Shown here piece by piece: positions 1 through 19,195 of a DNA stretch of 64,000 nt (its first letter is position 1; each line of letters opens with the position of its first letter). The DNA lies in contig JBCCYL010000026.1 in NCBI GenBank assembly GCA_039189765.1, forward strand, positions 2,787 through 66,786. Direction: 5' to 3'. The translations under genes and the position numbers were made by a program. A model generated the notes under the pieces. That model ran no database searches. It was not told the origin of the DNA and saw only the letters and a program-made list of their open reading frames with translations. Source of the DNA: Cyanobacteria bacterium P01_F01_bin.150. GTDB taxonomy: Bacteria; Cyanobacteriota; Cyanobacteriia; CAKZMO01.

Positions 1-1
1 G

Positions 2-289
2 ACAGAATGGTGTTTGGATTATCTGCGCTGGTTGTCAGATATCAGTCGCTGTGGGGATGAAATTATTAATTTATTTAAGCCAGATTGTTTAGTTCAGGCA
101 AAAGGAACAGAGACTATACCCGATGAATTGTCTGCACTAGTGATTGGTGTTGAAGTGGATCGAAGTAAGCGTACCAGCGATAGTATTCCGCTTCTAAAGC
201 AACGCTTGGATGATCCGGATTTAGCATCATGGTGTGGGCGGGGTATGGTTGGGTTAGCCCGAGCTATATATACTTTATGCCAAATCTAA
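2..289 (+). CDS. 3' end of a gene that begins upstream of the window; hypothetical protein
   Basis: The reading frame is open from position 2 and the listed ORF 14..289 starts at TTG, so the true start probably lies upstream of the window. No recognisable motifs. Confidence 0.3.
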   Translation, partial: TEWCLDYLRWLSDISRCGDEIINLFKPDCLVQAKGTETIPDELSALVIGVEVDRSKRTSDSIPLLKQRLDDPDLASWCGRGMVGLARAIYTLCQI

Positions 290-436
290 CCTATTTATAA
301 TGAATGCAACTCGCTTCTAGTGATTGCGTTATGCTTGCGTTGTAATTCACTTTCTTTAATAAACAACGTCATTGAGCTTAAAATTGACGCCTGAGAACAA
401 TAATTGATGTACGTTTCTTTTGTATGAATCCCCCCT

Positions 437-3400
437 ATGACCAATGTAGAGAATGAACTTGGCAACAGCCTATTATTGCCTCAGCTAAAGGACGATCGAG
501 ATATTCGAGCGGATCGGATTGGAGCTTGGACATTACATCCTACGGCTGCTTTTCAGCGAATTGCCGCAGGCTTAGATTATCAGGCACCGGGTGAGTTAAA
601 TAGCGTTAGCTCTGTGCCGACTATGTGGGCGCATCCCCTCACGGTTGAAATGGCGCTCCATAATCCAGGACACCCGATTCGAGAGCAAATGGTGGGGCAG
701 TGGCGAGGGATGTTGGCGGCGATCGCCCTTGCTTCAGTTCTGGGGCATCCGCTGAAAGCCAAGCGTATTCAAGTTGGTAAACTGGGCTATCATCCTTTTG
801 ATCGGGCATTAAATCGCCTAGTGCCGGATGCGTTCAATGCGCTCTATGACCATCGTCAAACAGGAGATAAACATCCTTGGCGTGACTTATTTGTTTTTTT
901 CTGGGGAGATAACCCGGTGGGAATGACTTCCCCCAGCACTATTGTTGTGCCAGGGGAAGCAGCTAATTGGGGAAGCTTACGCTGGTATAATCCGACGTCA
1001 AAGCGGCTTTACTCTCCCCAAAAAAGCGAACTCAATGAGGATGATCGCACTCAATTGTGGCTGTGGTTACAGAACCTGCAAAATGCTCTGACTGCTCCAG
1101 ATTTGGGAGGCAATGGGCAAGCGGTCAACACAATTGTGCGCCTGCTTGATGAATTCAAGGCCGACCTTCTAAACGCTCCTCCTCAGGAAGCCCTGGCCCT
1201 TAGTAGTGATAGAGAATTCTTTGGTATCCCCCTTAACCGTGGGATTCTTAGGACTTTAAGTAAACCAATTAAAGCGGCTGCAAAGGATTCTAGCGTAGCG
1301 ATTGTTCCCAGCGAAGGCAAAACGCCTGAGAAGCCATTAATTTTAATTGATCCGGAAATTGCTAAGCGTTGGGGGAAAGAGCCGGAGGATATTTATGTTT
1401 ATCAGGATAAGACCCTAGCAAAAATTAATCTAGAAGCGATCGACCAATATCGTTTTCAATGGAAAGACGAGGTAAATTGTGCGACTCCGGATGACTTATT
1501 TTTAGCCGATTTGAAGTTTATTGACCATGTGGCGGAGGCGATTCCCGGTGGATTGATGCCAAAAAGCACTCAGCCTTTGGTATTTGCTGGAGAGCATATT
1601 ACAGCCTTAATCCCTCTTAACTCCTTGCTTTTGGAGTACTTCACTCCAGAAGAGCTGGTCGATTTAATGACGTTAAAACCTCTTAATGAGGGTGAGTCTA
1701 GTAAAGTTGAGGTGTCTCTAGACTTGCCTTTATCCGGTACCGACAAATTAGGGAAGTCAGAAAACTATCGCCTAACTCGAGAATATGAGCTTACCCAAGA
1801 AAATGCCCTAACGGCTATTCCAGTCTTAGAATTGTGGCCCAATTTTAAGGCTAAAGATTGGCAAGCCTACTACGCACTGTTTTTTGACCTTGGCGCAGGC
1901 AACCAGACCTTTCGAGTCAGATTTACCGGCCAAACTGAAGTTGTGCCATATAAAGATGACCAAGGGGCAAACTATATTTTGACCCAGCTATATGAGTTTC
2001 CGACGGTGATTGAATGTTTAGATGATGCTAATCAATTGATCGGCCTAATTCTTCCCAAGCAGCCCCCAGAGGTTTTCCCAAAGGCCAACTGGAAAGTAGG
2101 CGTAGACTTTGGTACTTCTTTTACAAATATTTATGTGGGACGTAGTGGCAGAGCAGAGCCCTTGGAGTTAGATGAAGAGTTGCATCTCAAGGTCACAAAG
2201 TCTCCTCTAAATAATCGATTCCCAACCCTACTACACTTTTTTGTACCAGAGAGATTTCTGCCTCCGGAAAGACCCTTACCCCTGTCGACCGTATTAACCA
2301 CCCGAGCGAGTAGTTTGCCGAAGGGTAAAGGGGAGCGAGCAATCCTTGATGGCCGAATTTTCAACCCAAATTTACGAGATTTTAACCCCCAAGAGGATTG
2401 GATTGAAACCGATTTGAAGTGGAAAAATTTTGACCATCATCGTTTATTTCTTAAGCATCTAATCCTGCATATTTCAGCCAATGCAGTAAAGCAAGGCATT
2501 GCCAATATTCATTGGATGCTTTCCTATCCATCGGCGTTTTCCCGAAATGACCGCAGCATGTATGCAGCTACTTGGAATGATCTCACCGAAGCGTTAGGTC
2601 GGGATACCGGCATTCACTCGCAGTGCTCATCAAACCCCAATAGCGAGTACTTCAAAACAGAGAGTCTGGCTATTGCCCAATACTTTGCCGATCAGGAACG
2701 ATTAGATATGGTGTATTCCACCTGTATTGATATGGGGGGAGGGACCTCAGATATCTCTATCTGGCAGGATAATGAATTAGTGCATCAATGTTCTGTCAAA
2801 TTTGCGGGTCGGGATTTGCTATCTAACTTTTTGGAACTCAAACCTACCTTTGTTGCAACTCATTTTGAGCGTGACCCGCGTGAATGGTCTAAATTGCGGG
2901 GTGGCGATTTTCATGCCAAGCTGGATGTCTTGCTGCGGTGGGAAAGTGAAGCTTGGCTTCAGAAGAAGCGGCCGACGCTGACGGATGCAGATGATTTCCA
3001 AGGGTTAGTGCGTTTGATGGCTTTGGGGGTTTGTGGCTTGTATTATTATGTGGGTCTGATCATACAGTGCCTCAAAGAAAACGGAACCTATCGGCGTGAT
3101 GTCATTACACCCGTGTATTTGGGAGGGAATGGGTCACGATTACTCCACTGGCTCGATATCACAGGCCGCTTTAGCACTCATGGGGAAATGAATTTATTGT
3201 TGAGCCGGATTTTGAGTCGGGGTGCGAATTTAGATGATTCACAAGAAAATACCCGGCTTAGTGGCCACCCGAAGGATGAAGTGGCCTGTGGCTTAGTGTT
3301 GGCAGAAACTGACCTTAAAGGGTTGGATCCTAGGTCTCCAGACTCTTTGATTCCTGGTGAAGACTATGAATTGAATGGGATGTCCTATGGCTGGGATCGG

Positions 3401-3715
3401 ATTATGGATATAGAAGAAGATATTACTAGTTTCAGTATCCCTAAATTAGATCATTTATCTGAATTTCTGTATGAATTTCACAAGGGGTTAAAGGATTTTC
3501 GGATTGAAGGAATTAGACCGATTCCTGGATATACGCCAAGCACTGATATTTCGGTAAACCCGAAGCTTTGGCAGGGAACTCAGCGATCCTTGGATAAGCT
3601 TTTACGAGAAAGTAAACTAACGGGTGATATTACCAAGATTCAGATGCAGCCACCTTTTATTTTGGGGCTTAAAGCGTTATTGCATCATCTGGGGAATCAA
3701 TGGTCGGGACGCTAA
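437..3715 (+). CDS. Large (1092 aa) protein with a C-terminal Hsp70/actin-like (ASKHA) ATPase domain; N-terminal ~350 aa of unknown function
   Basis: Three motifs in the right order and spacing for an ASKHA fold: VGVDFGTSFTNIYVG (phosphate-1, cf. Hsp70 GIDLGTTNS), CIDMGGGTSDISIW (phosphate-2, cf. DLGGGTFDVS) and VYLGGNGSRLLHWL (adenosine motif, cf. GG.SR.P). Long uninterrupted ORF, with a degraded paralog downstream at 9425-11905. Confidence 0.6.
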   Translation: MTNVENELGNSLLLPQLKDDRDIRADRIGAWTLHPTAAFQRIAAGLDYQAPGELNSVSSVPTMWAHPLTVEMALHNPGHPIREQMVGQWRGMLAAIALASVLGHPLKAKRIQVGKLGYHPFDRALNRLVPDAFNALYDHRQTGDKHPWRDLFVFFWGDNPVGMTSPSTIVVPGEAANWGSLRWYNPTSKRLYSPQKSELNEDDRTQLWLWLQNLQNALTAPDLGGNGQAVNTIVRLLDEFKADLLNAPPQEALALSSDREFFGIPLNRGILRTLSKPIKAAAKDSSVAIVPSEGKTPEKPLILIDPEIAKRWGKEPEDIYVYQDKTLAKINLEAIDQYRFQWKDEVNCATPDDLFLADLKFIDHVAEAIPGGLMPKSTQPLVFAGEHITALIPLNSLLLEYFTPEELVDLMTLKPLNEGESSKVEVSLDLPLSGTDKLGKSENYRLTREYELTQENALTAIPVLELWPNFKAKDWQAYYALFFDLGAGNQTFRVRFTGQTEVVPYKDDQGANYILTQLYEFPTVIECLDDANQLIGLILPKQPPEVFPKANWKVGVDFGTSFTNIYVGRSGRAEPLELDEELHLKVTKSPLNNRFPTLLHFFVPERFLPPERPLPLSTVLTTRASSLPKGKGERAILDGRIFNPNLRDFNPQEDWIETDLKWKNFDHHRLFLKHLILHISANAVKQGIANIHWMLSYPSAFSRNDRSMYAATWNDLTEALGRDTGIHSQCSSNPNSEYFKTESLAIAQYFADQERLDMVYSTCIDMGGGTSDISIWQDNELVHQCSVKFAGRDLLSNFLELKPTFVATHFERDPREWSKLRGGDFHAKLDVLLRWESEAWLQKKRPTLTDADDFQGLVRLMALGVCGLYYYVGLIIQCLKENGTYRRDVITPVYLGGNGSRLLHWLDITGRFSTHGEMNLLLSRILSRGANLDDSQENTRLSGHPKDEVACGLVLAETDLKGLDPRSPDSLIPGEDYELNGMSYGWDRIMDIEEDITSFSIPKLDHLSEFLYEFHKGLKDFRIEGIRPIPGYTPSTDISVNPKLWQGTQRSLDKLLRESKLTGDITKIQMQPPFILGLKALLHHLGNQWSGR

Positions 3716-3767
3716 GTGCGCTTATGTCCATTATATTATTGCTTTAGTTTGACTTATTAGGTTAAAC

Positions 3768-4892
3768 ATGACTACTGAACAAAACTGGCAAGTCCCTTGC
3801 CAAATCTGCGGCTTTCACAATTGGTTCTCTAAACTTGGTGACAAGGTTATTTATTGTCGTAAGTGTGGTGGCCCTACCTATAATGTCCGCCGTCCTTTTG
3901 ATGAGGGTGATATGTATGACTTTATCAATAAAGTTAAATTATGGACGCGAGATGGAGTAGCGGTGAGAAGGGACTCCAGTGTTAACGAGTCTGCAATCAA
4001 GAATCAAGAATCCTCTTCATCTAATCAGGTAAGTCATTCAGCTGAGCTGGCATTTTTGAAAAAAGAAAATGAAGAACTAAAAGTTGGCTTGGATCAGGCC
4101 ATTCAAATCCTTGAAAATTTGCAAAGGAAAGAATTATTTTTACATGAATTTAAGATCTTAGCAGATAATTTTTATCAAGATTTTGAACACGTGAAAATGC
4201 ATGTCGATGCAGACTTAGAACAGTTAAAAAATATTAGAAAAGGCACTGAAATTGATGGCCCAGGTGGTTCTGAGATTGATGCACAAGAAGATTTGAAATC
4301 AGAACAAAATCTTAACAAGCAACAACCATCGGACTCTGTTGATAGGGAAGTAGATGTTTCCAAGAATCCAGAACTGGATCAAGAAAAGCGAGAAGAAAGG
4401 CCAAAACTGCCTAAATGGTTAGCAAGATATAATGCTTTAAGTTCTGCTACCGATAGGAGAATCTTCAAAATATTTAAAGAAGATTATGCTGTTCAAATGT
4501 TAATTACGCCCCAGGATGCATTGGAAGGCGATTGGATGTCCCGTCGTGATGATGAGGCAAAAACGTTTAGCTCTGTTGCAGAAGATGGTGAAAGTACATA
4601 TTGGCATATCCATGATGATGAGTTAGATGGAACGGATTTTTTAGTCTTGGATAGGCAGATATTTAGTATAAATAGATCAAGTCTATTATCGATAGCGGTT
4701 TGCTATAACTTCAATACGGACGATGAGGAACAGTCCAAGCAATTTAATCCCGCTAACTATATTCTAAAAGACTATAAAGTGATCTATCCTGCCGAAATTA
4801 TTCGAACGGAGGGGACAAACGAATGGCTTTTGAGTAAGCGGGGACGCATGGACTTTGCGGAAAAAGATCAAGCGAACAATCAAGAAAACTAA
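3768..4892 (+). CDS. Zinc-ribbon (CxxC...CxxC) protein with a coiled-coil and an acidic region, unknown function
   Basis: N-terminal CQICGF...CRKCGG four-cysteine zinc-ribbon motif. Central heptad-like coiled-coil (LKKENEELKVGLDQAIQILENLQRKEL) followed by an acidic low-complexity stretch. The gene is visibly more AT-rich than its neighbours. Confidence 0.5.
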   Translation: MTTEQNWQVPCQICGFHNWFSKLGDKVIYCRKCGGPTYNVRRPFDEGDMYDFINKVKLWTRDGVAVRRDSSVNESAIKNQESSSSNQVSHSAELAFLKKENEELKVGLDQAIQILENLQRKELFLHEFKILADNFYQDFEHVKMHVDADLEQLKNIRKGTEIDGPGGSEIDAQEDLKSEQNLNKQQPSDSVDREVDVSKNPELDQEKREERPKLPKWLARYNALSSATDRRIFKIFKEDYAVQMLITPQDALEGDWMSRRDDEAKTFSSVAEDGESTYWHIHDDELDGTDFLVLDRQIFSINRSSLLSIAVCYNFNTDDEEQSKQFNPANYILKDYKVIYPAEIIRTEGTNEWLLSKRGRMDFAEKDQANNQEN

Positions 4893-5090
4893 AATAGTCC
4901 AAAGTTAGAGTCCCGACCGCTTTAAGAAACTGAAGTTCTGGGCCAGCTCATTTTATTTCTGATTCCATGCCATTGCGCTAGAGGAGTTTTCCACGGCTGA
5001 GTTCATTCAACGTAAGACTCAATAAAGAAACTGTATCAGGGGGATCTTTAGCTTTTGATATCAACAGGAAAAGGCTTTTAAGGAGGATCC

Positions 5091-7523
5091 ATGAACTTTA
5101 AACAAATGCCTAAATATTGGCTTTTGTTATTAGTATTAGTCACAGGCATAGGCGTAGGCACCGCTCACCTCCGTCGGGCAACTCCTCCTTCAGATTTTTT
5201 AACGGAACAAAACACCCCAACGGATCAGGCAGGAGCTGTTCAGGACGACATAGAACTGAATTTAAATCAACTACAAGCCGACCTGGGTGACAGTATTTCT
5301 GTGGAAGAGCATGTCAACAAAATTGTTGAAGCTTACACGATTTACAATGACAGTCTTCAAGCAAGTTTGATTGAGCCGCTCAAAACTATTGCCGAGAAAC
5401 CTGGGGAACATAGAAGTAAAGCATTTATCAAAAATGTTCCTCTGAATATTGAGGCCGTTAACGATCAGCTGGAGACGCTGCATGGCTTTATTGTTGCCTT
5501 TAGTACTGATGTAATCGTCATTACAGTTAGTAGGGAAGATACGGACCGATTAGCTACCGTACTGAATGAGCTTGGAGCTATTCAAGAGGCAATTGAAGAG
5601 ATTCAAACTTTGTTGATTAAGCCGCTAATGTCTCCAGATGGCGAGCCAACCAGCGAAGAGGACTCAAGAACAGGCGAAAATGCCCAGCAGACGACCAACG
5701 CAGATAACCAGGCAACCATTGGCGATTACCCGGATATGGCTGAAGATGACCCGGATAAAGCCCAAGAGATTGCCCAGTTGATTGAGGAAATGGGTCCTAA
5801 AGGTATTTTTGTAAACCTTAGCTATAAAGAAGGACATGAGGATCTCCCGCCTGACGATCCTACTATCCCAGAAAAGTCTCGTTCCAAAGTAATTGCGTCT
5901 CTTCAGGAAAATATTGAGGAAGTAAAAAATATCCCTGCAGTTACCTTAAAAACATTAGGTTTCTATGGTCCTGCTACCTTTGCTGGAATTGAGGAGTTTT
6001 TGCAGTATCGAAATGAAACCATCAGCAATACTCAGTTGATTAGGGTTTCACTGGCTCCAGCTCCAGAGGATTTTCTCGTCAATACTCGTTGGAGAGGGAA
6101 TTTTGTTTTAAGTCTACTTGTCCTTGGTGCCTTAGCCGTTGCCTTATGGTTATTCACAAAACAACAAGGTAGACGTGTACAGAAAACTACCCGCCCAAGT
6201 GATGCTCCGGATCTAAATTGGCAAGGTGATGACCAAACTTCGATGTCTATGCTTAGCATGCAACAGGATATTCTCAAAAGATTAAGCCGTCTTGAAACAC
6301 GCATATCTTCTAAACATCTTGCTTCTTCCGTTAAACGGCTTGAGAAAGATATGATTTCTATTCAAGAGAAGCTCGGAGAAGAACTAGGCATATTGCACGA
6401 AGCAGTATCAAGAAGCCAAGGGCATGGTGAATCCACTAGCTTCCCTTCATCAGCTCAGCTTGGGGAAGTTACTATACTTTATAGACAGCAACCAACACGT
6501 TTTTATATTACGGATACGGTCGCACCATCTCAGGAGAGCCAAGAAGCCTTTTGGTCAGGGCGAAAAACAGATTTCTCTTTTATCACATCGGACCAAGGTG
6601 ACTATTACATTGTTACGCAAGATCAACGTACATACTATGTTGTTCTCCGAGAGAATTTCCCTTTCTCTTCCGGAGCTAATGCCATAATTAAAATGTCGTA
6701 TGAATACGACCATAAGCCAAATCCTAAAGATTTGCACCGTAATTACTTGGAGCTAGCCAGCGTTGAGGAGCATGGGGGGGCAAATGTCTGGGTACTTAAA
6801 ACGCGGGGACACCTGTCTTTTATAGATGGCAGCTTTAAGTCTAGTGTTGCTTTGCCACCTATTGCTCTTCCAGCCAAGCAAAAAATGATCGTTTCAGATA
6901 ATTCAAGTGCGGGTGACCATAAGAAGGCACTAACTCAGGAGATGACGCAGTTACGGACAGTGCTGGCTGAAATTAAACAATCTGTGACAAATCTGTCGTC
7001 ACAGGACACCGATAGAAGCAAGAAAGTTCAGGCATTAGAACAAAAAGTGTTGGGGTTGCAGGTCGTAATGGGAGAATTTACACAGCAGTTACATAACCTA
7101 CAGCAGTTTGTGCCTAGTCCTGAGGTGAATTGGGTGCAAAATTATAACCAGTCAGCGTCTCGACTTCGTGATTTTGCGGTAGTGGTGGAACAAACGGATG
7201 CTAGCTTGACTCAATATTTTCAGGGCATCAAGGATGTTTCGGTGCATTTTGAGCGTAACCCTCAAGGCATCTATTGGATAATGCCAGGAAAAATTTCTGA
7301 GCGTGGCGATCAGTTTGATTATTTAGTGCCAAAAAAAGAGGATATTAGGCTGAATCTGAATGCTTTACAATCAGTCAAGGCATGCTTTGACGTTCCAGAG
7401 CAAACGTCTGGCAATACGGATTTTGAACTAGTGTATCCGGCTATGGTACGGGCATCAGGCACCGTTGGTCGTTGGGAATTGGTAAAGCCAGGACAGTTAA
7501 AACTTAAGGATGGGACCCCATGA
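5091..7523 (+). CDS. Signal-peptide/transmembrane protein, paralog A (810 aa), unknown function
   Basis: Strong Shine-Dalgarno AAGGAGG at 5079-5085. N-terminal signal-like hydrophobic segment (WLLLLVLVTGIGVG), one internal TM helix (FVLSLLVLGALAVALWLF) and coiled-coil segments. About 85% identical over the first ~575 aa to the next gene. Confidence 0.6.
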   Translation: MNFKQMPKYWLLLLVLVTGIGVGTAHLRRATPPSDFLTEQNTPTDQAGAVQDDIELNLNQLQADLGDSISVEEHVNKIVEAYTIYNDSLQASLIEPLKTIAEKPGEHRSKAFIKNVPLNIEAVNDQLETLHGFIVAFSTDVIVITVSREDTDRLATVLNELGAIQEAIEEIQTLLIKPLMSPDGEPTSEEDSRTGENAQQTTNADNQATIGDYPDMAEDDPDKAQEIAQLIEEMGPKGIFVNLSYKEGHEDLPPDDPTIPEKSRSKVIASLQENIEEVKNIPAVTLKTLGFYGPATFAGIEEFLQYRNETISNTQLIRVSLAPAPEDFLVNTRWRGNFVLSLLVLGALAVALWLFTKQQGRRVQKTTRPSDAPDLNWQGDDQTSMSMLSMQQDILKRLSRLETRISSKHLASSVKRLEKDMISIQEKLGEELGILHEAVSRSQGHGESTSFPSSAQLGEVTILYRQQPTRFYITDTVAPSQESQEAFWSGRKTDFSFITSDQGDYYIVTQDQRTYYVVLRENFPFSSGANAIIKMSYEYDHKPNPKDLHRNYLELASVEEHGGANVWVLKTRGHLSFIDGSFKSSVALPPIALPAKQKMIVSDNSSAGDHKKALTQEMTQLRTVLAEIKQSVTNLSSQDTDRSKKVQALEQKVLGLQVVMGEFTQQLHNLQQFVPSPEVNWVQNYNQSASRLRDFAVVVEQTDASLTQYFQGIKDVSVHFERNPQGIYWIMPGKISERGDQFDYLVPKKEDIRLNLNALQSVKACFDVPEQTSGNTDFELVYPAMVRASGTVGRWELVKPGQLKLKDGTP

Positions 7524-9256
7524 ACTTTAAACGAATGCCTAAATCCTGGCTTTTGGTATTAGCATTAGTCGCAAGCATAGGCATTGGCAACGCTCACCTC
7601 CGTCGAGCAACTCCTCCTTCAGATCCGTTAACGGAACAAAATACCCCAACGGATCAAACAGGGGCTGTTCAGGACAACGTAGAACTAAATTTAAATCAAC
7701 TACAAGCAGACCTGGGTGGTAGTATTTCTGTGGAAGAGCATGTCAACAACATTGTTGAGGCCCACAAGGCTTTCAATGACAGTCTTCAAGCAAGTTTGAT
7801 CAACCCACTCAACACTATTGCCCAAGAACCTGCGGAACATAGAAGTAAAGAGTTTATCAAAAGTGTTCCTCTGGATATTGAGGCCGTTAGCGATCAGTTG
7901 GAGACGCTGTATGATTTTGTTGTTGATTTTAAGACTGATGTCATCCGCATTACAGCTGATAGGGAAGATACGGACCGATTGACTACCGTACAGAATGAGC
8001 TTGGAGCTATTCAAGAGGCAATTGAAGAGATTCAAACTTTGTTGATTAAGCCGCTAATGCCTCCAGATGGTGAATCGACCAGCGAAGGGGACTCAACAAC
8101 AGGCGAAGATGCCCCGCAGACGACCAACGCAGATAACCAAACAGCCATTGACGGTTACCCGCAGATGGCTGAAGATGACCCACAGATGGCCCAAGTTATT
8201 GCCCAGTCGATTGAGGAAATGGGTCCTAAAGGTATTTTTGTAAACCTTAGCTATAAGGAAGGACATGAGGCTCTCCCGCCTAACGATCCCACTCTTCCAG
8301 AAAAGTCTCGGTCAAAAGTCATTGCATCTCTTCAGGAAAATATTGAGGAAGTAAAAAAGATACCTACAGTTAACTCAGAAACATTAGGTTTCTATGATAC
8401 TAGTACCTTTGCTGGAATTGAGGAGTTTTTGCAGAATCAAAATAAGGCCATCAGCAATACTCAGTTGATTAGGGCTTCACTGGCTCCAGCTCCAGCGGAT
8501 TCTCTCGACAATACTCGTTGGAGGGAGAATTTTATTTTAAGTCTACTTGTCCTTGGTGTTTTAGCCGTTGCCTTATGGTTGTTTGCAAAACAACAAGGTA
8601 GAGGTGTACAGAAAACTATCCGACCAAGTGATGCTCCGGATCTAAATTGGCAAGGTGATGCTCCAACCTTAATGTCTATTTTTAGAACGCAACAGGATAT
8701 TCTCGAAAGATTGAGCCGTCTTGAAAAACGCAAATCTTCTTCTAAACTTGATTCTTCCGTTAAACGGCTTGAGAAAGATATGATTTCTATTCAAGAGAAG
8801 CTCGGAGAAGAACTAGGCATATTGCATAAAGCATTATCAAGAATCCAAGGACCTGGTGAGCCTACTAGTTTTCCCCCAGCAGCTCGGATTGGGGACATTG
8901 TTATACTTTTTAGACAGCAACCAACGCGTTTTTATATTACGGATACGGTCGCACTCTCCCAGGAAAGCCAAGAAGCCTTTTGGTCAGCTCAAAAAACAGC
9001 TTTCGCTTTTATCTCATCGAACCAGGGTGATTATCATATTGTTACGCAAGATCAACGTATATACTATGTTGTTCTCCGAGAGGATTTCCCTTTCTCTTCC
9101 GGCGCTAATGACATCATTAAAGCCTCGTATGAATATGACCAGAAGCCAAATCTTAAAGATTTAAACCGTAATTACTTAAAGTTAGCCAAAGTTGAGGTTC
9201 ATGGGGGGGCAAATGTCTGGATACTTAAAACGCGTGGGGAAATTAGCTTTGAATAA
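7520..9256 (+). CDS. Signal-peptide/transmembrane protein, paralog B (578 aa), truncated relative to paralog A
   Basis: Start overlaps the stop of paralog A (ATGA). Collinear similarity to paralog A residues 1-575 at both protein and nucleotide level. Similarity stops at the stop codon, so it lacks the C-terminal ~235 aa present in A. Confidence 0.55.
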   Translation: MNFKRMPKSWLLVLALVASIGIGNAHLRRATPPSDPLTEQNTPTDQTGAVQDNVELNLNQLQADLGGSISVEEHVNNIVEAHKAFNDSLQASLINPLNTIAQEPAEHRSKEFIKSVPLDIEAVSDQLETLYDFVVDFKTDVIRITADREDTDRLTTVQNELGAIQEAIEEIQTLLIKPLMPPDGESTSEGDSTTGEDAPQTTNADNQTAIDGYPQMAEDDPQMAQVIAQSIEEMGPKGIFVNLSYKEGHEALPPNDPTLPEKSRSKVIASLQENIEEVKKIPTVNSETLGFYDTSTFAGIEEFLQNQNKAISNTQLIRASLAPAPADSLDNTRWRENFILSLLVLGVLAVALWLFAKQQGRGVQKTIRPSDAPDLNWQGDAPTLMSIFRTQQDILERLSRLEKRKSSSKLDSSVKRLEKDMISIQEKLGEELGILHKALSRIQGPGEPTSFPPAARIGDIVILFRQQPTRFYITDTVALSQESQEAFWSAQKTAFAFISSNQGDYHIVTQDQRIYYVVLREDFPFSSGANDIIKASYEYDQKPNLKDLNRNYLKLAKVEVHGGANVWILKTRGEISFE

Positions 9257-9424
9257 GCTCACACACTTTGAATTTCCTCTATTTGGAAACCTAAAATTTT
9301 AATCTGGATTAGGTTGTTCGTGTCAGTATTGCTATTCAATGGCATGTAACCTCACTTCTTCCAAATTAAATAGAAATTTTTAAGCTTTTCTGTTTCAGAT
9401 TTACTATGTAGACTTGTAGATATA

Positions 9425-11905
9425 ATGGTGTCAAGGTCAGTTGCTATCGATCCCTTGCAAGATTATTCTTTCAGCTATGTGATGCTGATACCCAGCTGGG
9501 AAAAGCATCCTGAATCTCCGTTATTGCTTATTGTCCCTGATATCGCGTTAGCCTGGAAGACAGCTCCTCAGGACATCCTTGTTTGCGAAGGCGTTACGCT
9601 AGATCGCATCCCCTTGACACGCTGGCGTCCTATCGATTGCACTGGCCCAAGCTAGTTTTGACGACTCCCGATGATCTGTTTCTGGCCGATTTCTCCTTTA
9701 TTCCCATGTCGCAGAGGCTATTCCAGGTGGTCTGATGCCCGAGAGGCCAAAACCCTTGATATGTGCAGGCGAACCTATTACGCCGCTGATTCCTCTCAAG
9801 CCCCTACTACTCAATTACTTTACGCCAGAAGAACTGATACAACGATTAACCTTTAGGCGTCTTCTCCCTCCAGAAGACGCCCAGGTTGAAGTTTCGCTGA
9901 GATTAACACTTTCCGGGCCAAATCACTTAGATAGTCCTAAAGATTATCACGTCACTAAAATTTATCCTCTGGAACAGAAAAATGTCCTAACAGCCATACC
10001 CGTCCTGGAAATTTGGCCTAACTTAAAGCTAAAGACTGGCGAACATACTATAGTCGCCACTTCGATTTAGGGGCAGGCAATCAAACGTTTCAGGTTCATT
10101 TTGAGGATGCCGCCGAAACAGTGCCCTTTAAAGATGATCAAGGTGCAAACTACTCGTTGATTCGATTGAGCGAATTTCCAACCAGCATTGAATGTTGGCA
10201 GCAGGACAGCAAGCTTATCGGCCTGATTTTACTGAAACAGCCGCCAGACTATTTCCCCGATGCGGACTGGCGAGTGGGGATTGATTTTAATCCCTCGTTT
10301 ACCAATATTGCCGTTGGCTGTGGAGGAAAAGTGGATCTTTTGGCGTTGGCACAAGATTTACACCTCAAGGTCACTAAGTCCCCGCTCAATAAGGGATTTC
10401 CCGCTTTGATCAAATATTTCCTCCCAGAGCGTTTTCTGCCAGCAGAGGAGCCTTTACCCTTGCACAGTATCCTGACTACCCGTGCAAGTCCGTGGGGAAT
10501 AATAAAGTAGGAGAGCGACCTATTTTAGACGGACGGATCCTTCTCCCAAACTTACGGGATTTTACTCCACAGGAAGATTGGATTTATTGCAATCTGGATT
10601 GCAATACAAATACTCTGAATGCCACTCGCTTATTTTTGAGAAATCTCATTTTGCTAATCTCAGCAAATGCTGTTAAGTAAAGGGCGAAAACGCTGATTTG
10701 GAAAATTTCCTATCCCACCCATCTCTCGCGCAACTCGCGCAATCTGCGCGTTAGGATTTGGAATGATCTACTTCAAGAATTGGCTATGATGACCGGACTG
10801 AACTATCGTATTGCACATAATCCTGACTCCAGTCATTTTATGACCGAAAGCGTCGCCTTTGGTCAATATTGGCCTGTTCACGAAGAATTAGAACTGGACT
10901 GTGCTGTTTGTTTGAATATGGGACCTCAAACCACAGATATTGGTATTTGGTGCCAGGAGCAACTGATTCACCAATGTTCAATCAATTTCACGGGTCGGGA
11001 TTTATTTACAAACGTCCTGCGCCTCAAGCCTGCCTCTATTGCCCGGTATTTTGAACGCAATCCTAACGAGTGGCAGAACCTGAGTGGAGATGATTTTTCC
11101 TGGAAATTAGCGGTCCTACTGCGCTGGGAGAGCCGGACTTGGCTTCGGAAAAAGCGGCCATCTCTCAAAGAAAATAAAGACTTCCAAGGACTGATTCGTA
11201 TCATTGCTCTGGGCTTTAGTGGTCTTCACTACTATCTTGGGCTGGCCATGCAGTCATTAGCGACCCACGGGCTATACTCCAAAGACGATCTGCCCTCGAT
11301 TTACCTGGGCGGCGGTGATATGGGGCGAGTGGGGTCCCCGCGTTTACACTGGCTCGACGAAGCAGGACAGTTTTATCCGCACACTGAAATCAACTGGCTA
11401 TTCAGTCACCTTTTGAGCAGTGCTGCTGGGCTACCCGTTACGCAAACGTATACGCACCTCAGCACTTCTCCACAACACGAAATTGCTTACGGGCTAATCT
11501 CCCCCAAGCCTCTCCTTAATCCGATTGCTCCCCATGACAGCCCACTATTTGTTGCAGGCGAAGCTTACCAGATTAACTTTACGCCCTGTGCCTGGAACCA
11601 CCCTATCTTAACCCATAGAGCCTATTCGCCAATTTAGTATTCCTCAGGTCGATAATCTGGCCATTTTCCTGTATGAATTTCATCAGTGCTTGACCAACCT
11701 TAAGCTTGATAGCGTTAAACCATTACCGGGCTACACGCCAAGCCCTGACCTATCAGCGAACCCAGAGCTATGGCAAAGCACCCAGGGCATCTTGGCACAG
11801 ATGTTAAACGATCGCCATCTAACAGATAAGTCTGAAACCATAAAAATGAACCCGCCATTTATTTTGGCCCTGAAAGCATTGCTGACCCATCTAGGGAATC
11901 AATAG
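9425..11905 (+). pseudogene. Degraded paralog of the 437-3715 ASKHA-domain gene, covering only the region equivalent to residues ~280-1092
   Basis: Seven ORF fragments (9425, 9671, 9735, 10121, 10492, 10780, 11690) lie in three different frames and align collinearly with the 1092-aa protein. Examples: PDDLFLADL.../AEAIPGGLMP, FKDDQGANY...GIDFNPSFTNIAVG, CLNMGPQTTDIGIW, IYLGGGDMG, and the C-terminal PGYTPSPDLSANPELWQ...PPFILALKALLTHLGNQ. Multiple frameshifts and stops. Confidence 0.6.
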
Positions 11906-12170
11906 GTCGACAATGAGCAGCCAAATTAAGCTACGCTGTCCATGCTCACGGCATAGAAGCTTTTGGGTTCAGCGAACTCTACCGTTCGATAGAGTTATGC
12001 TCAACATATACGGTCGCAAAGCCTGAGGCTTATGCTTGATCATAAACAGATTGGGTTTGGAACACGAAAAACGCTTTCCAAACCCAAGTTTTGTATTCAC
12101 TATGCACGGAAAGCAGATCATATCTTCAAAGAAGAACGCGATCGCCACATTTATCACATGCTTTTAAGCA

Positions 12171-13337
<1,167 letters not shown>

Positions 13338-13857
13338 TTAGAAAATAATGCATGCAACAGGATGTAAATCAGGGAAGCTTAACAACTGCTACAAGCCCTA
13401 TTAAATAAGCATTCTAACTTTAATAAAGTTTAACTGAAGTGTTAATAGTTATTTATCTAGCATGGCATTTATTTGGTTACATTTTTTATCTTAGGTTAGC
13501 TTTTATTTTTATTTTGAAACTATTAATTGTCTTAGTGCTATCTGAAGCACATCTTTAAAGCGGCGATGGCCGATAAGACTGCATCCTATTTCAACGCTCA
13601 ACATCCTAACCATTAAGTCTTTATTTAGGGGGACCAACTTAAGGAGAGAAATAGCGCGTCGCGCCCCATTTCTCTCCAATTTGTTTCGCCTGACGTTGGA
13701 ACTCTTTTTTAGTCTATTGGGCATCCTTAGGAATGAGGATTTAATTGCTTATCAATGCGTAGGGTGCCGTTAGCGATAGCGTAACGCACCGTTCCAGAAA
13801 GTTTGACACTTTAATAAATCCTCGTTCCTTAGACTAGTCCCGCGTCAGCTTTATTTT

Positions 13858-13899
13858 GAGGGGAAAATCCCTGCGGGATTTTCCCCTCATTTATTTTCC
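13858..13899 (+). terminator. Strong intrinsic-terminator-like hairpin: perfect 14-bp stem (GAGGGGAAAATCCC/GGGATTTTCCCCTC), 3-nt loop, followed by ATTTATTTTCC
   Basis: Perfect palindrome read directly from the sequence, with a U-rich tail only in the + orientation. No annotated + strand gene lies upstream. Confidence 0.4.
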
Positions 13900-14091
13900 T
13901 GACAGAGTACTAATGAGCCAAAGGAGAAAAAATGCAGATTCCAAAATGGGTATGGTGTTGTTTAGGCGGCTTAGTTGGGATGGTCCCAATGATGGGAGCT
14001 ACGTTCTTAAACATGGATCAAGTGACATGTCAGAACCATGATTTTGCCGGAGACGTTGTAAAGACCATCGGTTCAGAGTGTAACCCTTGAG

Positions 14092-15618
14092 CTATCGCTG
14101 CCCTGTAAGGGTTGTCAACAATGGTGGCTCATCAAGTTCGTGCTTGGGCAATGCCCAAGCACGAACTTGATGAGCCATGATTTTCAAGAGTATGCCCGGT
14201 GCCACTAGGTTATGAGGTTTATCCAACATATGATTGACCCGCGTCATTCGCTCATATACCTTTGCGTCCCGAGTAATAAGAGCCAACAATTGGGATTGAT
14301 ACCAATTGTTAAAGCGCTCCAACAAAGTATGGGGTTGATTACGGTTAATGTACTGCTGATCCATTTCCGTTGCCATTGACCAGGGAATTTCTTCCGCCTT
14401 GGCAAACTGTTGTTGAATGGTTTGACACCAATCCGAACGGAGCGCATCGGGTAACTGATGTAAAGCGTGATCTAAAATTTGGGCTTCGATCGCGGCCATT
14501 GTGATGCCTTGACCATACACCGGGTTAAAGGCACAGGCAGCATGACCCATCACCAAGAAATTGTCTGGGTACACGGCCAGCTTTTCGTAGGCTCGCAAAC
14601 GGTTTTCATTACCGCGATACACGTAAATACCGCTCAACGGCTTAGCATCTTTAATCGCGTTGTAGATTTCAGGCGTTGGCAGACTGCGAGCGTACTCCAA
14701 ATATTCTGCCTCATTGGTTGGTGGATAATCGGGAGCCGCCCCTCCCAATCCAACAATCCAGCGATCGCCCTCCACTGGAAATAAGATAGCCGCTCGCGTC
14801 TGATCCGGTAAACTGGGCCAAACAATTGCCGCTTTCCACTCCACCGACGGCTGGCTCGGGAGTTCATAGATGCGATGGGCGTAGCCAATACGGGCATCTA
14901 GAAACGTTTCATCAGGAGCTTCATAGCCCAAAGCCTGGAGCCATTGGGGAGCTTTTGAGGTTTTACCACTTGCATCGATCACCAAATTGGCCATCAATGT
15001 TTGCTCACCATCTGCGGTCTTAACGTGAACTCCGCCGATTCCCTTTTGGTCTGGCATGCCCACAAGCGATGTCACTTTTGCCCCTTCTAGAAACTGAATA
15101 TTAGACTGCTGGCACAATCGTCGTCGAATAATCCAATCCAGCAATCCTCTTGTGGGCGAAATCGTGAGAATAGAGCTTGCGTCTTTCTTCGCCACACCAT
15201 ACTGACTAAAGAAGCAAATGTCTTGAGAATCGTTCAACAGAGGAGCACCGTGGGAGACTAATTCATCGGTCAAACCAGGAAATAACTCCTCCAGAATAAG
15301 CTGGCCTCGCTGAAGCAGCACATGGAGAAAACGAGACTGGGGTATCCCTTTACGAGGCGTTGGCTCCATTGGATAAACATCACGCTCGATAACCGTCACC
15401 TGTTGATAATGCTTGGCTAGAATGTGACCGGCCAGTAGCCCCGTCATACTGCCACCAATCACAATGGCATGGCGGAAATATTCGGGAGAATGGGCAGAGA
15501 CAACCTTACCGTTATTTACTGTATTTTGCTTGAATGGCATCCTGGCATAGAGTTGGGCAAACATCGAAGAGGCGGTCTTGGACTGTGAAGTCTTCGCTTG
15601 CAATGTCTTGAGTGGCAT
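14092..15618 (-). CDS. FAD-dependent oxidoreductase/monooxygenase (flavoprotein hydroxylase family)
   Basis: N-terminal Rossmann dinucleotide motif VIGGSMTGLLAGHILAKHYQQVTVIERD. Later GHAACAFNPVYGQGITMA resembles the GD...P..GQG.N flavin-monooxygenase motif. The annotated start is probably too far upstream; MPFKQ at ~15540 is more likely. Confidence 0.7.
   Translation of the reverse strand: MPLKTLQAKTSQSKTASSMFAQLYARMPFKQNTVNNGKVVSAHSPEYFRHAIVIGGSMTGLLAGHILAKHYQQVTVIERDVYPMEPTPRKGIPQSRFLHVLLQRGQLILEELFPGLTDELVSHGAPLLNDSQDICFFSQYGVAKKDASSILTISPTRGLLDWIIRRRLCQQSNIQFLEGAKVTSLVGMPDQKGIGGVHVKTADGEQTLMANLVIDASGKTSKAPQWLQALGYEAPDETFLDARIGYAHRIYELPSQPSVEWKAAIVWPSLPDQTRAAILFPVEGDRWIVGLGGAAPDYPPTNEAEYLEYARSLPTPEIYNAIKDAKPLSGIYVYRGNENRLRAYEKLAVYPDNFLVMGHAACAFNPVYGQGITMAAIEAQILDHALHQLPDALRSDWCQTIQQQFAKAEEIPWSMATEMDQQYINRNQPHTLLERFNNWYQSQLLALITRDAKVYERMTRVNHMLDKPHNLVAPGILLKIMAHQVRAWALPKHELDEPPLLTTLTGQR
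14125..14177. repeat. Perfect inverted repeat (~24-26 bp arms, 5-nt spacer) inside the 3' coding end of the FAD-oxidoreductase gene
   Basis: TGGCTCATCAAGTTCGTGCTTGGG caatg CCCAAGCACGAACTTGATGAGCCA, read directly. It encodes ...AHQVRAWALPKHELDEP... in the minus-strand ORF. Confidence 0.6.
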
Positions 15619-16910: not shown

Positions 16911-17597
16911 ATGTCCCAGTCCATCGAAGCATTGCAAGATACGTGGCTAAAAAAAGATTATCGATATGGTGCCGCCGACCTTACGGACAGCCATAAGGTT
17001 GCAGCAGCCAAGGGCAAGCGATATAAAGTCCTGTCCTATGACGAGCGAGACGGTAGAACTGAAATGGGTGGCCATTTCAAGATTGAGCTTGATCATGGTG
17101 GTGGCACCTGGTACATTTTTGCCGAACACTGGCAGTTACCGTGGCAAGTATTTGTCAAAGAACCGCTTCAAACCGTTCCTGAGTGGAATGAAGTGGACTG
17201 GACCGACTGGAATGCAGCGGTCTCCAAATATTTCACCGTTGGTGAAGTAACTAATATGTCTCGCGAACGCATTCCCACTGCCACCGAGATCAAGAAGAAT
17301 ATTATTGCGATCGCCCGTCACATGGACGACATTCGCGAGTGGTGGAATGGTCCTCTGGCGGTTAACTCTTGGTATCGTCCCTGGCATGTTAATGCTCGCA
17401 TTGGCTCCCGTGCTCCTAACCATCCCAATGGCTATGGCATCGATTTTCGTCCCCTTGGCGGCTCGGTATGGGAATTGCAAAAACGATTCCAAAATGAGTG
17501 GTACAACACTGGGAAATGGAATGGTGGCTTTGGACTCGGAGCTAGCAAAGGATTTATCCACCTTGACCTCCGAAACAAGCGCATCTGGAACTATTAG
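16911..17597 (+). CDS. Peptidase M15 family (zinc D-Ala-D-Ala carboxypeptidase / L-Ala-D-Glu peptidase-like)
   Basis: SRAPNHPNGYGIDFRP (H..G.A/G.D zinc-ligand motif) and GFIHLD (second His/Asp zinc ligands), typical of M15/VanY/hedgehog-type peptidases. Confidence 0.55.
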   Translation: MSQSIEALQDTWLKKDYRYGAADLTDSHKVAAAKGKRYKVLSYDERDGRTEMGGHFKIELDHGGGTWYIFAEHWQLPWQVFVKEPLQTVPEWNEVDWTDWNAAVSKYFTVGEVTNMSRERIPTATEIKKNIIAIARHMDDIREWWNGPLAVNSWYRPWHVNARIGSRAPNHPNGYGIDFRPLGGSVWELQKRFQNEWYNTGKWNGGFGLGASKGFIHLDLRNKRIWNY

Positions 17598-18652
17598 CGA
17601 TCGCTCGGCCGTCGTCGCTTTGAGTTAAGCTCCCGTTTGACCGCAATAGACCATTTGTCCACCATCGTCATCATCGCTGGCATCGTTGGTGCAGCCCGAT
17701 CTGCCAGATCTAGCTCTCCAACCACATCATTAAACGTTCGTCCCTTCGTCATTCGATAGCCAATTTCCTCTACCTCTTCCCACGTTAAATCACTATCTAC
17801 AAACGCCTGGGTCATGGTAATCAACAAGTCTTGATACTGATTGCCCTCTTCCTTGGTCATCATTGTGTGAGGAATATCTAAGACCCGATCAAAGCGATGG
17901 TACCAACAGCTCGGTTGATACTTAAGTGCCTTTTCAAACAGGGCATAGTGGTCTCGATTGCCAACAGCTTTATCGCTTTCACTGGAAATCATAAAGAAAG
18001 GCGCGGATGGACCCCTGCGCCCTTTTTTTAAGACATGTCTGCCAATTTGTAAGATGGCGCGGAGAGCGGGTAGGCTAAAGCCCAAATAGCTTGGCCCCAT
18101 AGTGCGAGACCATGCAAAATAGCCGTCCATTTTCTCTACAAAAAGATCAATCACCTTATTGCTATTGCTGAGATAGGGCGCAAATAACACCGCCCGATCC
18201 ACCATCTCTGGTTTTTCCACAGCCAACCAACTTGCTAATGTGCCACCGCCAGAAAGCCCACCCACGATGACGCGATCGCCCAGCAAATGGGCTAGCTGGA
18301 GCCAACGCAGCGCAAATCGCAGATAACTCTTGGCATCGGTTAACAAAGGCGGGGGATTATGCTTTCCCCACTCACCAGCCTGACCATGGCCTGGCATCAG
18401 CGGCACTAAAACATTATGGCCATGCTTAAATAGTGCCTCGGCCATCGGTGCAAATTGATAAGGTCCGGCCGTAAAGCCATGAAAGAAGAGGAATACTTTT
18501 GAGGTCTGTTGGGGAGCAAAATAAAACCGTGAACGACAGTCATCATCAAAAAGCGGGAGGTTCGTTTCAGAGAGACGAATGTTTTCAGAGAGCGTTGCCG
18601 TAATCTTTGAATAATCCTCTGGCATAAGCTTAGTGGATCGTTTGCAGTACAA
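17594..18652 (-). CDS. Alpha/beta-fold hydrolase
   Basis: GLSGGG nucleophile-elbow (GxSxG) motif. Downstream Asp/His candidates lie in a region that resembles alpha/beta-hydrolase topology. Confidence 0.6.
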   Translation of the reverse strand: MYCKRSTKLMPEDYSKITATLSENIRLSETNLPLFDDDCRSRFYFAPQQTSKVFLFFHGFTAGPYQFAPMAEALFKHGHNVLVPLMPGHGQAGEWGKHNPPPLLTDAKSYLRFALRWLQLAHLLGDRVIVGGLSGGGTLASWLAVEKPEMVDRAVLFAPYLSNSNKVIDLFVEKMDGYFAWSRTMGPSYLGFSLPALRAILQIGRHVLKKGRRGPSAPFFMISSESDKAVGNRDHYALFEKALKYQPSCWYHRFDRVLDIPHTMMTKEEGNQYQDLLITMTQAFVDSDLTWEEVEEIGYRMTKGRTFNDVVGELDLADRAAPTMPAMMTMVDKWSIAVKRELNSKRRRPSDR

Positions 18653-19078: not shown

Positions 19079-19195
19079 AATCGGATATGGGATCATCGGT
19101 GGTCAAGGGACTGTCTGTCCCTATCGAATGCCCAACGTTGATGCTCATTCTCGGCTGTATCGGAGTCATTTATAAATCGTGATGACAGAACTATC

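Follow-up and report, generated by a model that had tools for sequence, protein, structure and literature searches.

The 64,000-nucleotide (nt) stretch of Cyanobacteria bacterium P01_F01_bin.150 analyzed here (hereafter, the window), which comes from a metagenome-assembled genome (MAG), contains at positions 437-11905 five co-directional genes that encode a giant ATPase, a zinc-ribbon protein, two related membrane proteins and a decayed version of the ATPase. Do these genes make up a functional unit and, if so, what could such a unit do? An earlier note on this DNA had described the set as an unrecognized combination and suggested a fast-evolving accessory or conflict locus. We find that these five genes form the 3' portion of a cassette, not described before, that is centered on a tubulin-like GTPase and the giant ATPase of the ASKHA superfamily (actin/Hsp70/sugar-kinase fold) and is represented in at least 195 cyanobacterial species. 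The combination is indeed undescribed; it is not lineage-specific, however, and its tubulin-like centerpiece is cut by the edge of the window. The cassette genes in the window, where X denotes a shared domain discussed below, aa stands for amino acids, ORF for open reading frame and HMM for hidden Markov model, are as follows.

2-289, plus strand: 3' end of the tubulin/FtsZ-like GTPase gene (last 95 codons and stop), cut by the window edge
437-3715, plus strand: giant ASKHA-fold ATPase, 1092 aa (ORF listing)
3768-4892, plus strand: protein with a zinc ribbon, an acidic coiled coil and a C-terminal X domain, 374 aa (ORF and X-domain HMM)
5091-7523, plus strand: bitopic membrane protein Mem810, 810 aa (hydropathy scan and X-domain HMM)
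7520-9256, plus strand: Mem578, recent tandem paralog of Mem810, 578 aa (sequence identity and X-domain HMM)
9473-11902 with stop at 11903-11905, plus strand: pseudogene of a short ASKHA paralog, corresponding to residues 285-1088 of the long protein (tblastn)

The gene set outlined in the earlier note is present as four intact ORFs and a pseudogene, and both of the tight junctions that it reported can be read directly in the sequence: the gap between the ASKHA gene and the zinc-ribbon gene is 52 bp (3716-3767), and the stop codon of Mem810 overlaps the start codon of Mem578 as ATGA (7520-7523). The left edge of the window truncates the locus, such that the five genes represent only the downstream part of a larger cassette. 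The upstream DNA is supplied by a Logan contig from the same organism (L004), an independent assembly that reproduces the region; residues 415-509 of the 509-aa tubulin-like protein encoded in this contig are 100% identical, in a tblastn comparison, to window positions 2-286.

In the giant ATPase, an alpha/beta module (residues ~1-350) and a beta-rich module (~350-548) precede the actin/Hsp70-like nucleotide-binding core (~550-940), which is followed by a helical region at the C-terminus. The part that precedes the core, which had been taken for an unknown N-terminal domain of about 350 aa, is longer, ~550 aa, and combines the ~350-aa alpha/beta module with a ~200-aa all-beta module. The core contains the three diagnostic motifs of the superfamily, namely phosphate-1 (VGVDFGTSFTN, residues 555-565), phosphate-2 (CIDMGGGTSDIS, 763-774) and adenosine (YLGGNGSR, 894-901). 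Across 33 homologs, the segments DFGTSFTN, DMGGGTSD and GGNGSR are invariant, the invariant residues being D557, G559, T560, D765, G767, G768, T770, G896 and G897. The predicted structure displays the duplicated RNase-H-like two-lobe fold that defines the ASKHA superfamily and matches the nucleotide-binding domains of MreB, EutJ, ParM, PilM, FtsA and Hsp70. By its motifs and its structural model, the 1092-aa protein is a member of the ASKHA superfamily, in agreement with the original Hsp70/actin-fold assignment.

Assignment to a known family within the superfamily is another matter. The phosphate-2 motif (D-x-G-G-G-T-S-D-I-S) is of the FtsA/MreB/PilM type and is closest to those of FtsA and MreB. 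The Pfam models for FtsA (PF14450) and MreB score only 20 and 14.1 bits against cut-offs of 31.8 and 27, respectively, the NCBIfam ftsA, mreB and EutJ models reach 10-14 bits against cut-offs of 176-409, and the FtsA, MreB and EutJ matches are confined to ~32 residues around the phosphate-2 motif. The protein does not belong to the Pfam HSP70 family and lacks the C-terminal beta-sandwich substrate-binding domain with a lid that is expected of an Hsp70/DnaK chaperone; a sequence search of the PDB and a PADLOC scan yielded no match. For all window proteins, scans against Pfam, NCBIfam and PADLOC returned only sub-threshold hits to the phosphate-2 motif and to coiled coils. Hence, as anticipated, no match in these resources or among PDB sequences names the unit, and the context is not that of dnaK, hscA, mreB, ftsA or pilM.

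On the long contigs that we examined, the ASKHA gene is directly preceded by a gene for a protein of ~505 aa, which is preceded by a gene for a ~156-aa protein and then by a gene for a ~465-aa protein, the latter usually in the divergent orientation. The first of these is the gene whose 3' end falls in the window. All 22 members of this family that were analyzed match the Pfam Tubulin_2 model (PF13809) at E<=0.01 (best E 3.7e-10), and 11 of the 22 also match PF00091; the organism's own copy scores 26.9 bits with PF13809, next to the cut-off of 27, and its ortholog from Richelia sinica (locus L005) scores 33.2. The loops GIGGTGAKC and GSIFGGTGASGLPT are invariant or nearly so, and the segments GIGGTG and GSIFGGTGASG, which show no variation in this family, correspond to nucleotide-binding loops (T1 and T4-like). 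The copy from Gloeothece is labeled in RefSeq as a tubulin-like domain-containing protein. A PDB profile search with the family gave no sequence match. Judging by these sequence signatures, the 509-aa protein is a member of the tubulin/FtsZ superfamily of the Tubulin_2 (FtsZl1) type.

The 156-aa protein (hereafter TM156) contains three or four hydrophobic helices. The ~465-aa protein has a canonical lipobox (L-x-[SAG]-C), followed by an invariant D-G-S-x-S-M segment (DGSGSM) that resembles the MIDAS-type DxSxS motif, and by a downstream T-D. Pfam VWA_2 matches this family faintly, in one of 20 members (E 0.07), and a PDB profile search retrieved nothing. Given this faint Pfam signal and the empty PDB profile search, we infer rather than assert that the protein is a periplasmic vWA-like lipoprotein. 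In the Richelia sinica locus, the lipoprotein (L005:6403-7800, minus strand) also matched the PADLOC model HEC-01A (residues 254-428; 21.9 bits, E 1.8e-5); this match was judged spurious because HEC-01A is an ABC ATPase according to the source preprint.

How widespread is this arrangement? A word-indexed search detected 231 homologs of the ASKHA protein, all of ~1080-1100 aa and 45-68% identical, and all those with a named organism are cyanobacterial. A HMMER search of 1.84 billion cluster representatives expanded the family to 1359 clusters at E<=1e-3 and 496 clusters at E<=1e-30, with the full-length architecture retained down to ~28% identity; the few named members of the distant clusters belong to Cyanobacteriota. 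In a pattern scan over one genome per GTDB species, a relative was confirmed in 195 stretches, which is the source of the lower bound on species given above. The 79 distinct loci that were retrieved span Nostocales, Oscillatoriales, Chroococcales, Pleurocapsales, Chamaesiphon, Thermosynechococcaceae, Acaryochloridaceae, Geminocystis and others. Most of the copies are chromosomal, and some genomes possess two. In Calothrix anomala FACHB-343 (L016), a second full-length homolog of 1314 aa is encoded at 3185-7129, upstream of the main cassette; its motifs are nearly intact (DFGTSFTN, DVGGTTSD), unlike those of the short paralogs discussed below.

The gene order, shared by about 80 loci that represent every major cyanobacterial order and include plasmids, is fixed: a divergent vWA-like lipoprotein gene, the small gene for a protein with three or four transmembrane (TM) segments, the tubulin-like gene, the ASKHA gene, one to six genes for proteins containing the X domain and, optionally, a short inactive ASKHA gene. 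Among 86 sequences (85 fetched loci plus the window), tblastn detects the tubulin-like gene in 82, TM156 in 76 and the lipoprotein gene in 58, many of the gaps reflecting the ends of contigs; X-proteins are encoded in 70, and neither order nor orientation varies. The earlier note had proposed to look for synteny in related cyanobacteria and would have regarded the locus as unremarkable had the genes turned out to be well annotated and scattered; they are syntenic, and their homologs are unannotated.

The downstream genes, which look dissimilar from genome to genome, turned out in an all-against-all comparison to share a single segment of ~120 aa, the X domain. An HMM built from seven copies and then iterated identified 259 copies in 205 ORFs across 70 loci, with one to six X genes per locus; at all loci inspected, these genes follow the ASKHA gene on its own strand, with the exception of a single minus-strand upstream copy in L058. 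The consensus of the domain (...YN..P...V.eT.ES....G....LE...G.YWI......YLVP....IN.....T...LFeC..Y......F.L.KPA.V........W.L.E.G.L.F) contains no Walker A motif, and the pattern of residues gives it the appearance of a beta-rich domain. Among 192 non-redundant X-proteins, X occupies the extreme C-terminus in 164 and is present in two copies in 49; 72 of these proteins have predicted TM segments, and 46 contain a CxxC...CxxC ribbon. The only known domain family that Pfam finds attached to X, in six of 94 X-proteins, is the WD40 propeller; in one such protein, encoded at 18516-20000 of the Lyngbya confervoides locus (L002), the beta-propeller is located N-terminal to X. One X-protein of the Richelia sinica locus additionally shows a weak match to PG_binding_1. 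X and the ASKHA family are unrelated according to hhalign (probability 0.3%). A profile search with the X alignment against a database of 5.8 billion proteins retrieved nothing, probably owing to the word pre-filter, and is therefore no evidence of absence.

Four copies of X are present in the window, all of them in this locus and none elsewhere in the 64 kb. One is in the zinc-ribbon protein (residues 227-365, nt 4446-4862; 50.7 bits), which also carries the CxxC...CxxC motif at residues 11-33. A protein with an N-terminal zinc ribbon and a C-terminal X domain is encoded immediately beside the ASKHA gene in 39 of 65 loci; accordingly, the zinc-ribbon gene in the window is a positionally conserved member of the cassette. 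Two copies are in Mem810 (residues 456-579, nt 6456-6827, and 677-807, nt 7119-7511; 60.8 and 83.3 bits), and one is in Mem578 (residues 457-578, nt 8888-9253; 64.4 bits). From hydropathy, Mem810 is predicted to consist of an N-terminal signal or anchor (residues 9-27), an extracytoplasmic region of ~310 aa, a TM segment (338-356) and a cytoplasmic coiled coil; Mem578 has the same topology with a single X domain, and a bitopic arrangement is likewise predicted for the X-protein L5_475. Mem810 and Mem578 are members of a recurrent class of proteins in which an N-terminal anchor, ~300 residues outside the cytoplasm and a TM segment precede an X domain on the cytoplasmic side. The zinc-ribbon/coiled-coil protein and the paralogous membrane proteins are thus as first described, the latter two being 78.5% identical over 577 aa. 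Their nucleotide identity of 87.5%, synonymous divergence (dS) of 0.21 and ratio of nonsynonymous to synonymous divergence (dN/dS) of 0.56 point to a recent tandem duplication under relaxed purifying selection. In the NCBI record (P0272, AAGD25_11260), Mem578 is annotated as a 508-aa protein; the ORF that starts at the ATGA overlap is 578 aa long, its alignment with the paralog begins at residue 1, and the deposited start codon is probably located too far downstream.

The simplest null explanation of the locus is that unrelated, fast-evolving ORFs without a shared function lie side by side by chance or in one lineage only, or else that annotation or assembly produced an artifact. Seen from the window alone, this is what one might suspect: a search of the 5.8-billion-protein database with Mem810 retrieved only itself and its paralog, the zinc-ribbon protein finds tblastn matches in only four loci, and the source is a MAG. 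It is nevertheless refuted by the comparative data, given that the Logan assembly reproduces the region independently, that core synteny is conserved across orders and that the zinc-ribbon protein and both membrane proteins carry the X domain, which is found at the same position in 70 loci; we regard the probability of this explanation as negligible.

The pseudogene is represented by six tblastn segments that alternate among three frames and cover ASKHA residues 285-1088, which implies at least five frameshifts and hence a true pseudogene. Short ASKHA genes, corresponding to residues ~350-1092 of the long protein, are found in about 10 of the ~80 distinct loci; they are intact in L005, L035, L050 and L058 and split in L003 and L043, and in Lyngbya confervoides an X domain precedes the short form within one fused protein. 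All short copies have lost the phosphate-2 motif (DMGGGTSD is replaced by DIGNAVSN, NFEPDHTD, NIDRYFTD, HIEDLISS, YLQENTTE and others), and most have also lost phosphate-1, while the fold-defining segments and the C-terminal helix (PPFILGLKALL..W) are retained. The pseudogene in the window has the same kind of degenerate motifs (phosphate-1 DFNPSFTN, phosphate-2 NMGPQTTD) and hence represents a pseudo-ATPase partner that subsequently decayed. The earlier note was right that a shorter, frameshifted paralog of the ATPase is present; from its motifs, though, this copy descends from a recurrent component that was already devoid of catalytic motifs and not from a simple duplicate of the active gene.

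The C-terminal helix itself (PPFILGLKALL..LG..W; residues 1072-1092, nt 3649-3712) is nearly invariant in the long forms, in the inactive short forms and in a caspase fusion. It is moderately amphipathic and could be an interaction or membrane-binding element. As a specific membrane-targeting device it was considered and set aside: the hydrophobic moment is moderate, and the structural model packs the helix confidently against the rest of the protein.

Protein fusions link several of these components. In two proteins, P0179 (1605 aa) and P0186 (1341 aa), a tubulin-like part at the N-terminus (MAAYLIAVGGTG..., SIFGGTGASGLPT) is naturally fused to the full-length ASKHA protein; P0186 stops within the ASKHA core and might be truncated. 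The caspase fusion, P0121 (1166 aa), joins a caspase-like protease (PADLOC caspase model, E 7e-11) to a short-form ASKHA region (residues 281-1091) with partly degenerate phosphate motifs (DFSSSFTN, DMGSNTSD); a member of the same cluster, P0285 from Cyanobacteria bacterium J06650_10, is annotated as a caspase family protein. The two NTPases have also evolved in concert: over 53 taxa, pairwise distances in the ASKHA and tubulin-like families are correlated (r=0.93).

The components of the cassette diverge at two different rates. Between Richelia sinica (L005) and Sphaerospermopsis (L035), identity is 92% for TM156, 90% for the tubulin-like protein, 82% for the ASKHA protein and 78% for the short paralog but drops to 59% in the lipoprotein and 35-57% in the X-proteins; the pattern of a slow core and a fast periphery is repeated in three other pairs. 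Between the window and L003, the tubulin-like and ASKHA proteins are 67% and 68% identical, respectively, and the X-containing membrane protein is 26% identical; between Trichodesmium IMS101 and MAG R02, the respective values are 97%, 95% and, for the X-proteins, 68-83%. The description of the locus as fast-evolving consequently applies to the zinc-ribbon/X proteins, the membrane/X proteins and the lipoprotein but not to the well-conserved TM156/tubulin-like/ASKHA core.

The neighbor-joining tree of the ASKHA proteins recovers many groups that agree with taxonomy: Trichodesmium with Okeania, Microcoleus, Crocosphaera, Chamaesiphon, and Thermosynechococcaceae with Acaryochloridaceae. Nostocales and Pleurocapsales each form two distant clusters, and one of the two copies from Crocosphaera sp. 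Alani8 is placed beside a plasmid-borne copy from Gloeothece verrucosa PCC 7822. This 47.5-kb mobilizable plasmid (Cy782204, MOBP; L086) carries a complete cassette with two X-proteins at 5308-15215, about a fifth of the plasmid, and the search reported two places in the record. Even a subfamily that is only 29-32% identical, on plasmids of Picosynechococcus, keeps the order vWA-like protein, TM protein, tubulin-like protein, ASKHA protein, membrane proteins and a TM2-plus-X protein. In Trichodesmium erythraeum IMS101 (L015, NC_008312.1; 6438-8287 and 10001-13276), the ASKHA gene is split into ORFs of 706 and 382 aa and the small TM gene is in two pieces ~1.3 kb apart, whereas the copies in Trichodesmium MAGs are intact; the system seems to be decaying in this culture strain.

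Another explanation to consider is DNA or plasmid segregation, with the tubulin-like protein acting as a TubZ-like motor and the ASKHA protein as a ParM-like one. Such a partition cassette is very improbable. The majority of the copies are chromosomal, no centromere-binding adaptor or repeat array was seen, and membrane and periplasmic proteins dominate the gene set; furthermore, the proteins exceed partition NTPases two- to threefold in size, and the tubulin-like one falls within Tubulin_2 rather than TubZ.

Is there a characterized or predicted system to which the cassette can be compared? The closest are the FtsZl1 (Tubulin_2)-vWA neighborhoods with membrane proteins that were predicted, without experimental test, by Makarova and Koonin (2010, Biol Direct 5:33, PMC2875224), who proposed a membrane-remodeling complex. 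As in those neighborhoods, the gene for a Tubulin_2-type GTPase is accompanied by genes for a putative vWA-type protein, with a MIDAS-like motif, and for lineage-specific membrane proteins, and that family, for which a membrane-associated multiprotein complex was predicted, likewise has no experimentally known function. The differences are substantial. The cyanobacterial FtsZl1 proteins in that study are ~900-1130 aa long and have co-directional vWA and B7/OmpA neighbors, as opposed to ~505 aa and a divergent vWA-like lipoprotein here, and the present cassette includes an obligatory 1090-aa ASKHA partner and downstream genes that share X. The text and supplementary tables of that paper refer to none of these features and, in particular, to no actin-fold partner. 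Conversely, the frequent accessory genes of the FtsZl1-vWA neighborhoods, namely Ser/Thr kinase, P-loop GTPase and OmpA, were not detected by Pfam in the cassette genes of the window, L004 and L005 or among the 94 X-proteins.

A second point of comparison is provided by the predicted conflict systems of Firmicutes and Actinobacteria that are built around the DO-GTPase and GAP1-N2 and include tubulin or HSP70 themes, vWA proteins, zinc ribbons and inactive paralogs (Kaur et al. 2020, eLife 9:e52696, PMC7159879). The likeness extends to the presence of tubulin-superfamily, HSP70/ASKHA-fold, putative vWA, zinc-ribbon and TM components along with inactive paralogs and with adaptor or effector modules that vary, and to the general logic of a conserved NTPase core and a variable periphery in which small shared domains recruit partners (the 'effector-associated domains', EADs). 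However, tubulin and HSP70 belong to separate themes in those systems, whereas in the cyanobacterial cassette they are always together and sometimes fused; the EADs are alpha-helical, whereas the ~120-aa X domain looks beta-rich from its sequence pattern; and no DO-GTPase (TRAFAC P-loop) was identified by Pfam or NCBIfam in any cassette gene, the zinc-ribbon protein carrying X and no GTPase.

The proposed pairing of an actin-fold with a tubulin-fold protein at the membrane mirrors that in the FtsZ-FtsA divisome; with FtsA, MreB, PilM, EutJ, ParM and the Hsp70 domains the cassette shares the ASKHA fold and three nucleotide-binding motifs. CorMR of Anabaena sp. PCC 7120 (bioRxiv 10.1101/2025.06.27.661541; PDB 9rmi), in which CorM, derived from ParM and 336 aa long, has CorR as its adaptor, was considered as a relative and rejected, the CorMR system having no tubulin-like partner, no X-proteins and no sequence relationship to the cassette beyond the fold. 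In Santana-Molina et al. (2023), Tubulin_2 proteins figure solely as an outgroup of unknown history. Searches of open-access papers and bioRxiv preprints for FtsZl1, Tubulin_2 or PF13809 and for tubulin-like proteins with actin-like proteins, vWA or defense found no description of the cassette; nor did they turn up an experimentally established function for any member of Tubulin_2/FtsZl1, a family recognized at the sequence level since 2010.

These observations can be combined into a physical model. The tubulin-like GTPase and the ASKHA ATPase would form a single nucleotide-driven cytoplasmic assembly, analogous to FtsZ held by FtsA, which TM156 would position at the inner membrane. X would be the docking module through which interchangeable adaptors, whether soluble zinc-ribbon, coiled-coil and WD40 proteins or bitopic membrane proteins, plug onto this core; the bitopic adaptors would expose their large variable part to the periplasm and, together with the periplasmic vWA-like lipoprotein, would make the core assemble or disassemble in response to what happens in the envelope. 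A regulatory partner or cap would be supplied by the inactive short ASKHA paralog. In the genome of origin, the adaptors are the zinc-ribbon/X protein and the pair of membrane/X proteins from the recent duplication, and the inactive paralog survives only as a pseudogene. On balance, we consider this picture of a tubulin-like/ASKHA core with X-docked adaptors to be probable, if by no great measure.

The same features admit a different division of labor, in which the ASKHA protein is an Hsp70-like chaperone or assembly factor that spends ATP on the folding, insertion or assembly of X-domain clients, the X tag being recognized by the beta-rich module and the tubulin-like protein acting as a co-factor. 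Structural similarity to the nucleotide-binding domains of Hsp70, Hsp110 and Ssz1 is about as strong as that to MreB, the beta-rich domain adjoins the nucleotide-binding domain, the position of X at the extreme C-terminus with its conserved terminal W.L.E.G.L.F is reminiscent of C-terminal docking peptides, and one UniRef entry is named 'molecular chaperone'. We consider a chaperone improbable.

The patchy distribution, the plasmid-borne and duplicate copies and the repeated decay lead us to view the system, most likely a nucleotide-driven assembly that spans the envelope, as accessory; the fast divergence of the envelope-facing parts and the caspase and WD40 fusions lead us to favor, tentatively and short of confidence, a role in envelope surveillance or conflict, with sensing of phages or other invaders, over that of a housekeeping cytoskeleton. 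In the conflict version of the model, detection of an invader would trigger a thresholded NTPase response. Carried to its most specific form, that of a composite, membrane-anchored polymer or switch made of the tubulin-like and ASKHA proteins and wired through X to rapidly diversifying periplasm-facing sensors, a trans-envelope 'dual-cytoskeleton' immune or surveillance device with no characterized counterpart in any organism, the proposal is speculative and rather unlikely to be right in every part. The explanation as a whole, that is, the cassette, the coupled NTPases, the X-docked adaptors and an accessory surveillance or conflict role, strikes us as evenly balanced between right and wrong.

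Its main competitor is an accessory housekeeping machine for cytoskeletal function or membrane remodeling, in which an FtsZ/FtsA-like pair polymerizes at the membrane and shapes or repairs the envelope, the septum or the thylakoids with the help of the X-containing membrane proteins and the lipoprotein. The pairing of a tubulin-like with an actin-fold NTPase whose phosphate-2 motif is closest to FtsA and MreB, the membrane and periplasm-facing components, including the X-protein with the PG_binding_1 match, the strong conservation of the core with largely taxonomy-congruent clades, and flanking housekeeping genes that include cell-wall enzymes, without any matches to defense models, all fit such a machine. 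So does the published Tubulin_2/vWA hypothesis (PMC2875224), and CorMR shows that cyanobacteria repurpose actin-like systems for cell shape (bioRxiv 10.1101/2025.06.27.661541). What speaks against it is the patchy distribution, with plasmid and second copies and repeated disruption, the very fast turnover and variable number of the adaptors, and the fusions to caspase and WD40 domains that are typical of conflict systems. We consider this possibility unlikely, yet by no means negligible.

Several points count against the surveillance or conflict interpretation and the model on which it builds. The neighborhood in the window consists of ordinary metabolic and cell-wall genes and is no defense island; much of the ASKHA tree follows taxonomy, as expected of an old, vertically inherited cellular function; and no homologs were found in a phage collection or in IMG/VR contigs. 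The scoring with PADLOC that the earlier note had suggested matched no model convincingly: in PADLOC-DB 2.0, the ASKHA, zinc-ribbon, Mem578, tubulin-like, TM156 and short paralog proteins had no match, and elsewhere there was only coiled-coil noise and the spurious HEC-01A hit. Most of the loci contain no recognizable toxic effector, and the dN/dS of the duplicated membrane proteins indicates relaxed constraint, not demonstrated positive selection. With regard to the model, docking of X to the core is proposed from co-occurrence and fusions, the vWA assignment from motifs and one faint Pfam match, and polymerization of either NTPase is assumed by analogy. Local duplication and decay are present as the earlier note observed; the idea of a conflict locus is no more than plausible, given the housekeeping neighbors and the lack of a defense-model match.

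Whatever the function, the cassette places a Tubulin_2/FtsZl1 protein in a compact, well-delimited context that is widely conserved and includes an evident partner, to which this protein is sometimes fused, as well as a modular adaptor domain. Should the two NTPases cooperate, they would represent a bacterial case, apart from the divisome, of an obligatory pairing between a tubulin-fold and an actin-fold protein, and the long-open question of what FtsZl1-type tubulins do would become directly testable. The inactive paralogs, the caspase and WD40 fusions and the plasmid copies in culturable Picosynechococcus (PCC 8807/73109/7003) and Gloeothece strains are natural 'experiments' in this respect. 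If the role is in immunity or surveillance, a cytoskeleton-based mechanism would be added to cyanobacterial defense, with relevance for the bloom-forming Microcystis and Trichodesmium and for nitrogen-fixing Crocosphaera.

As for the surroundings, a scan of window positions 1-14000 with Rfam gave no match, and a promoter and terminator scan identified fewer sites than in shuffled sequence and is therefore uninformative with respect to operon structure. The locus is flanked in the window by genes for GAPDH, an FAD oxidoreductase, a TPR protein, an M15 peptidase, hydrolases and an L,D-transpeptidase. Among these, the M15 peptidase (16911-17597) and the YkuD L,D-transpeptidase (19196-19762), both peptidoglycan-remodeling enzymes, are encoded 5-8 kb downstream of the cassette.

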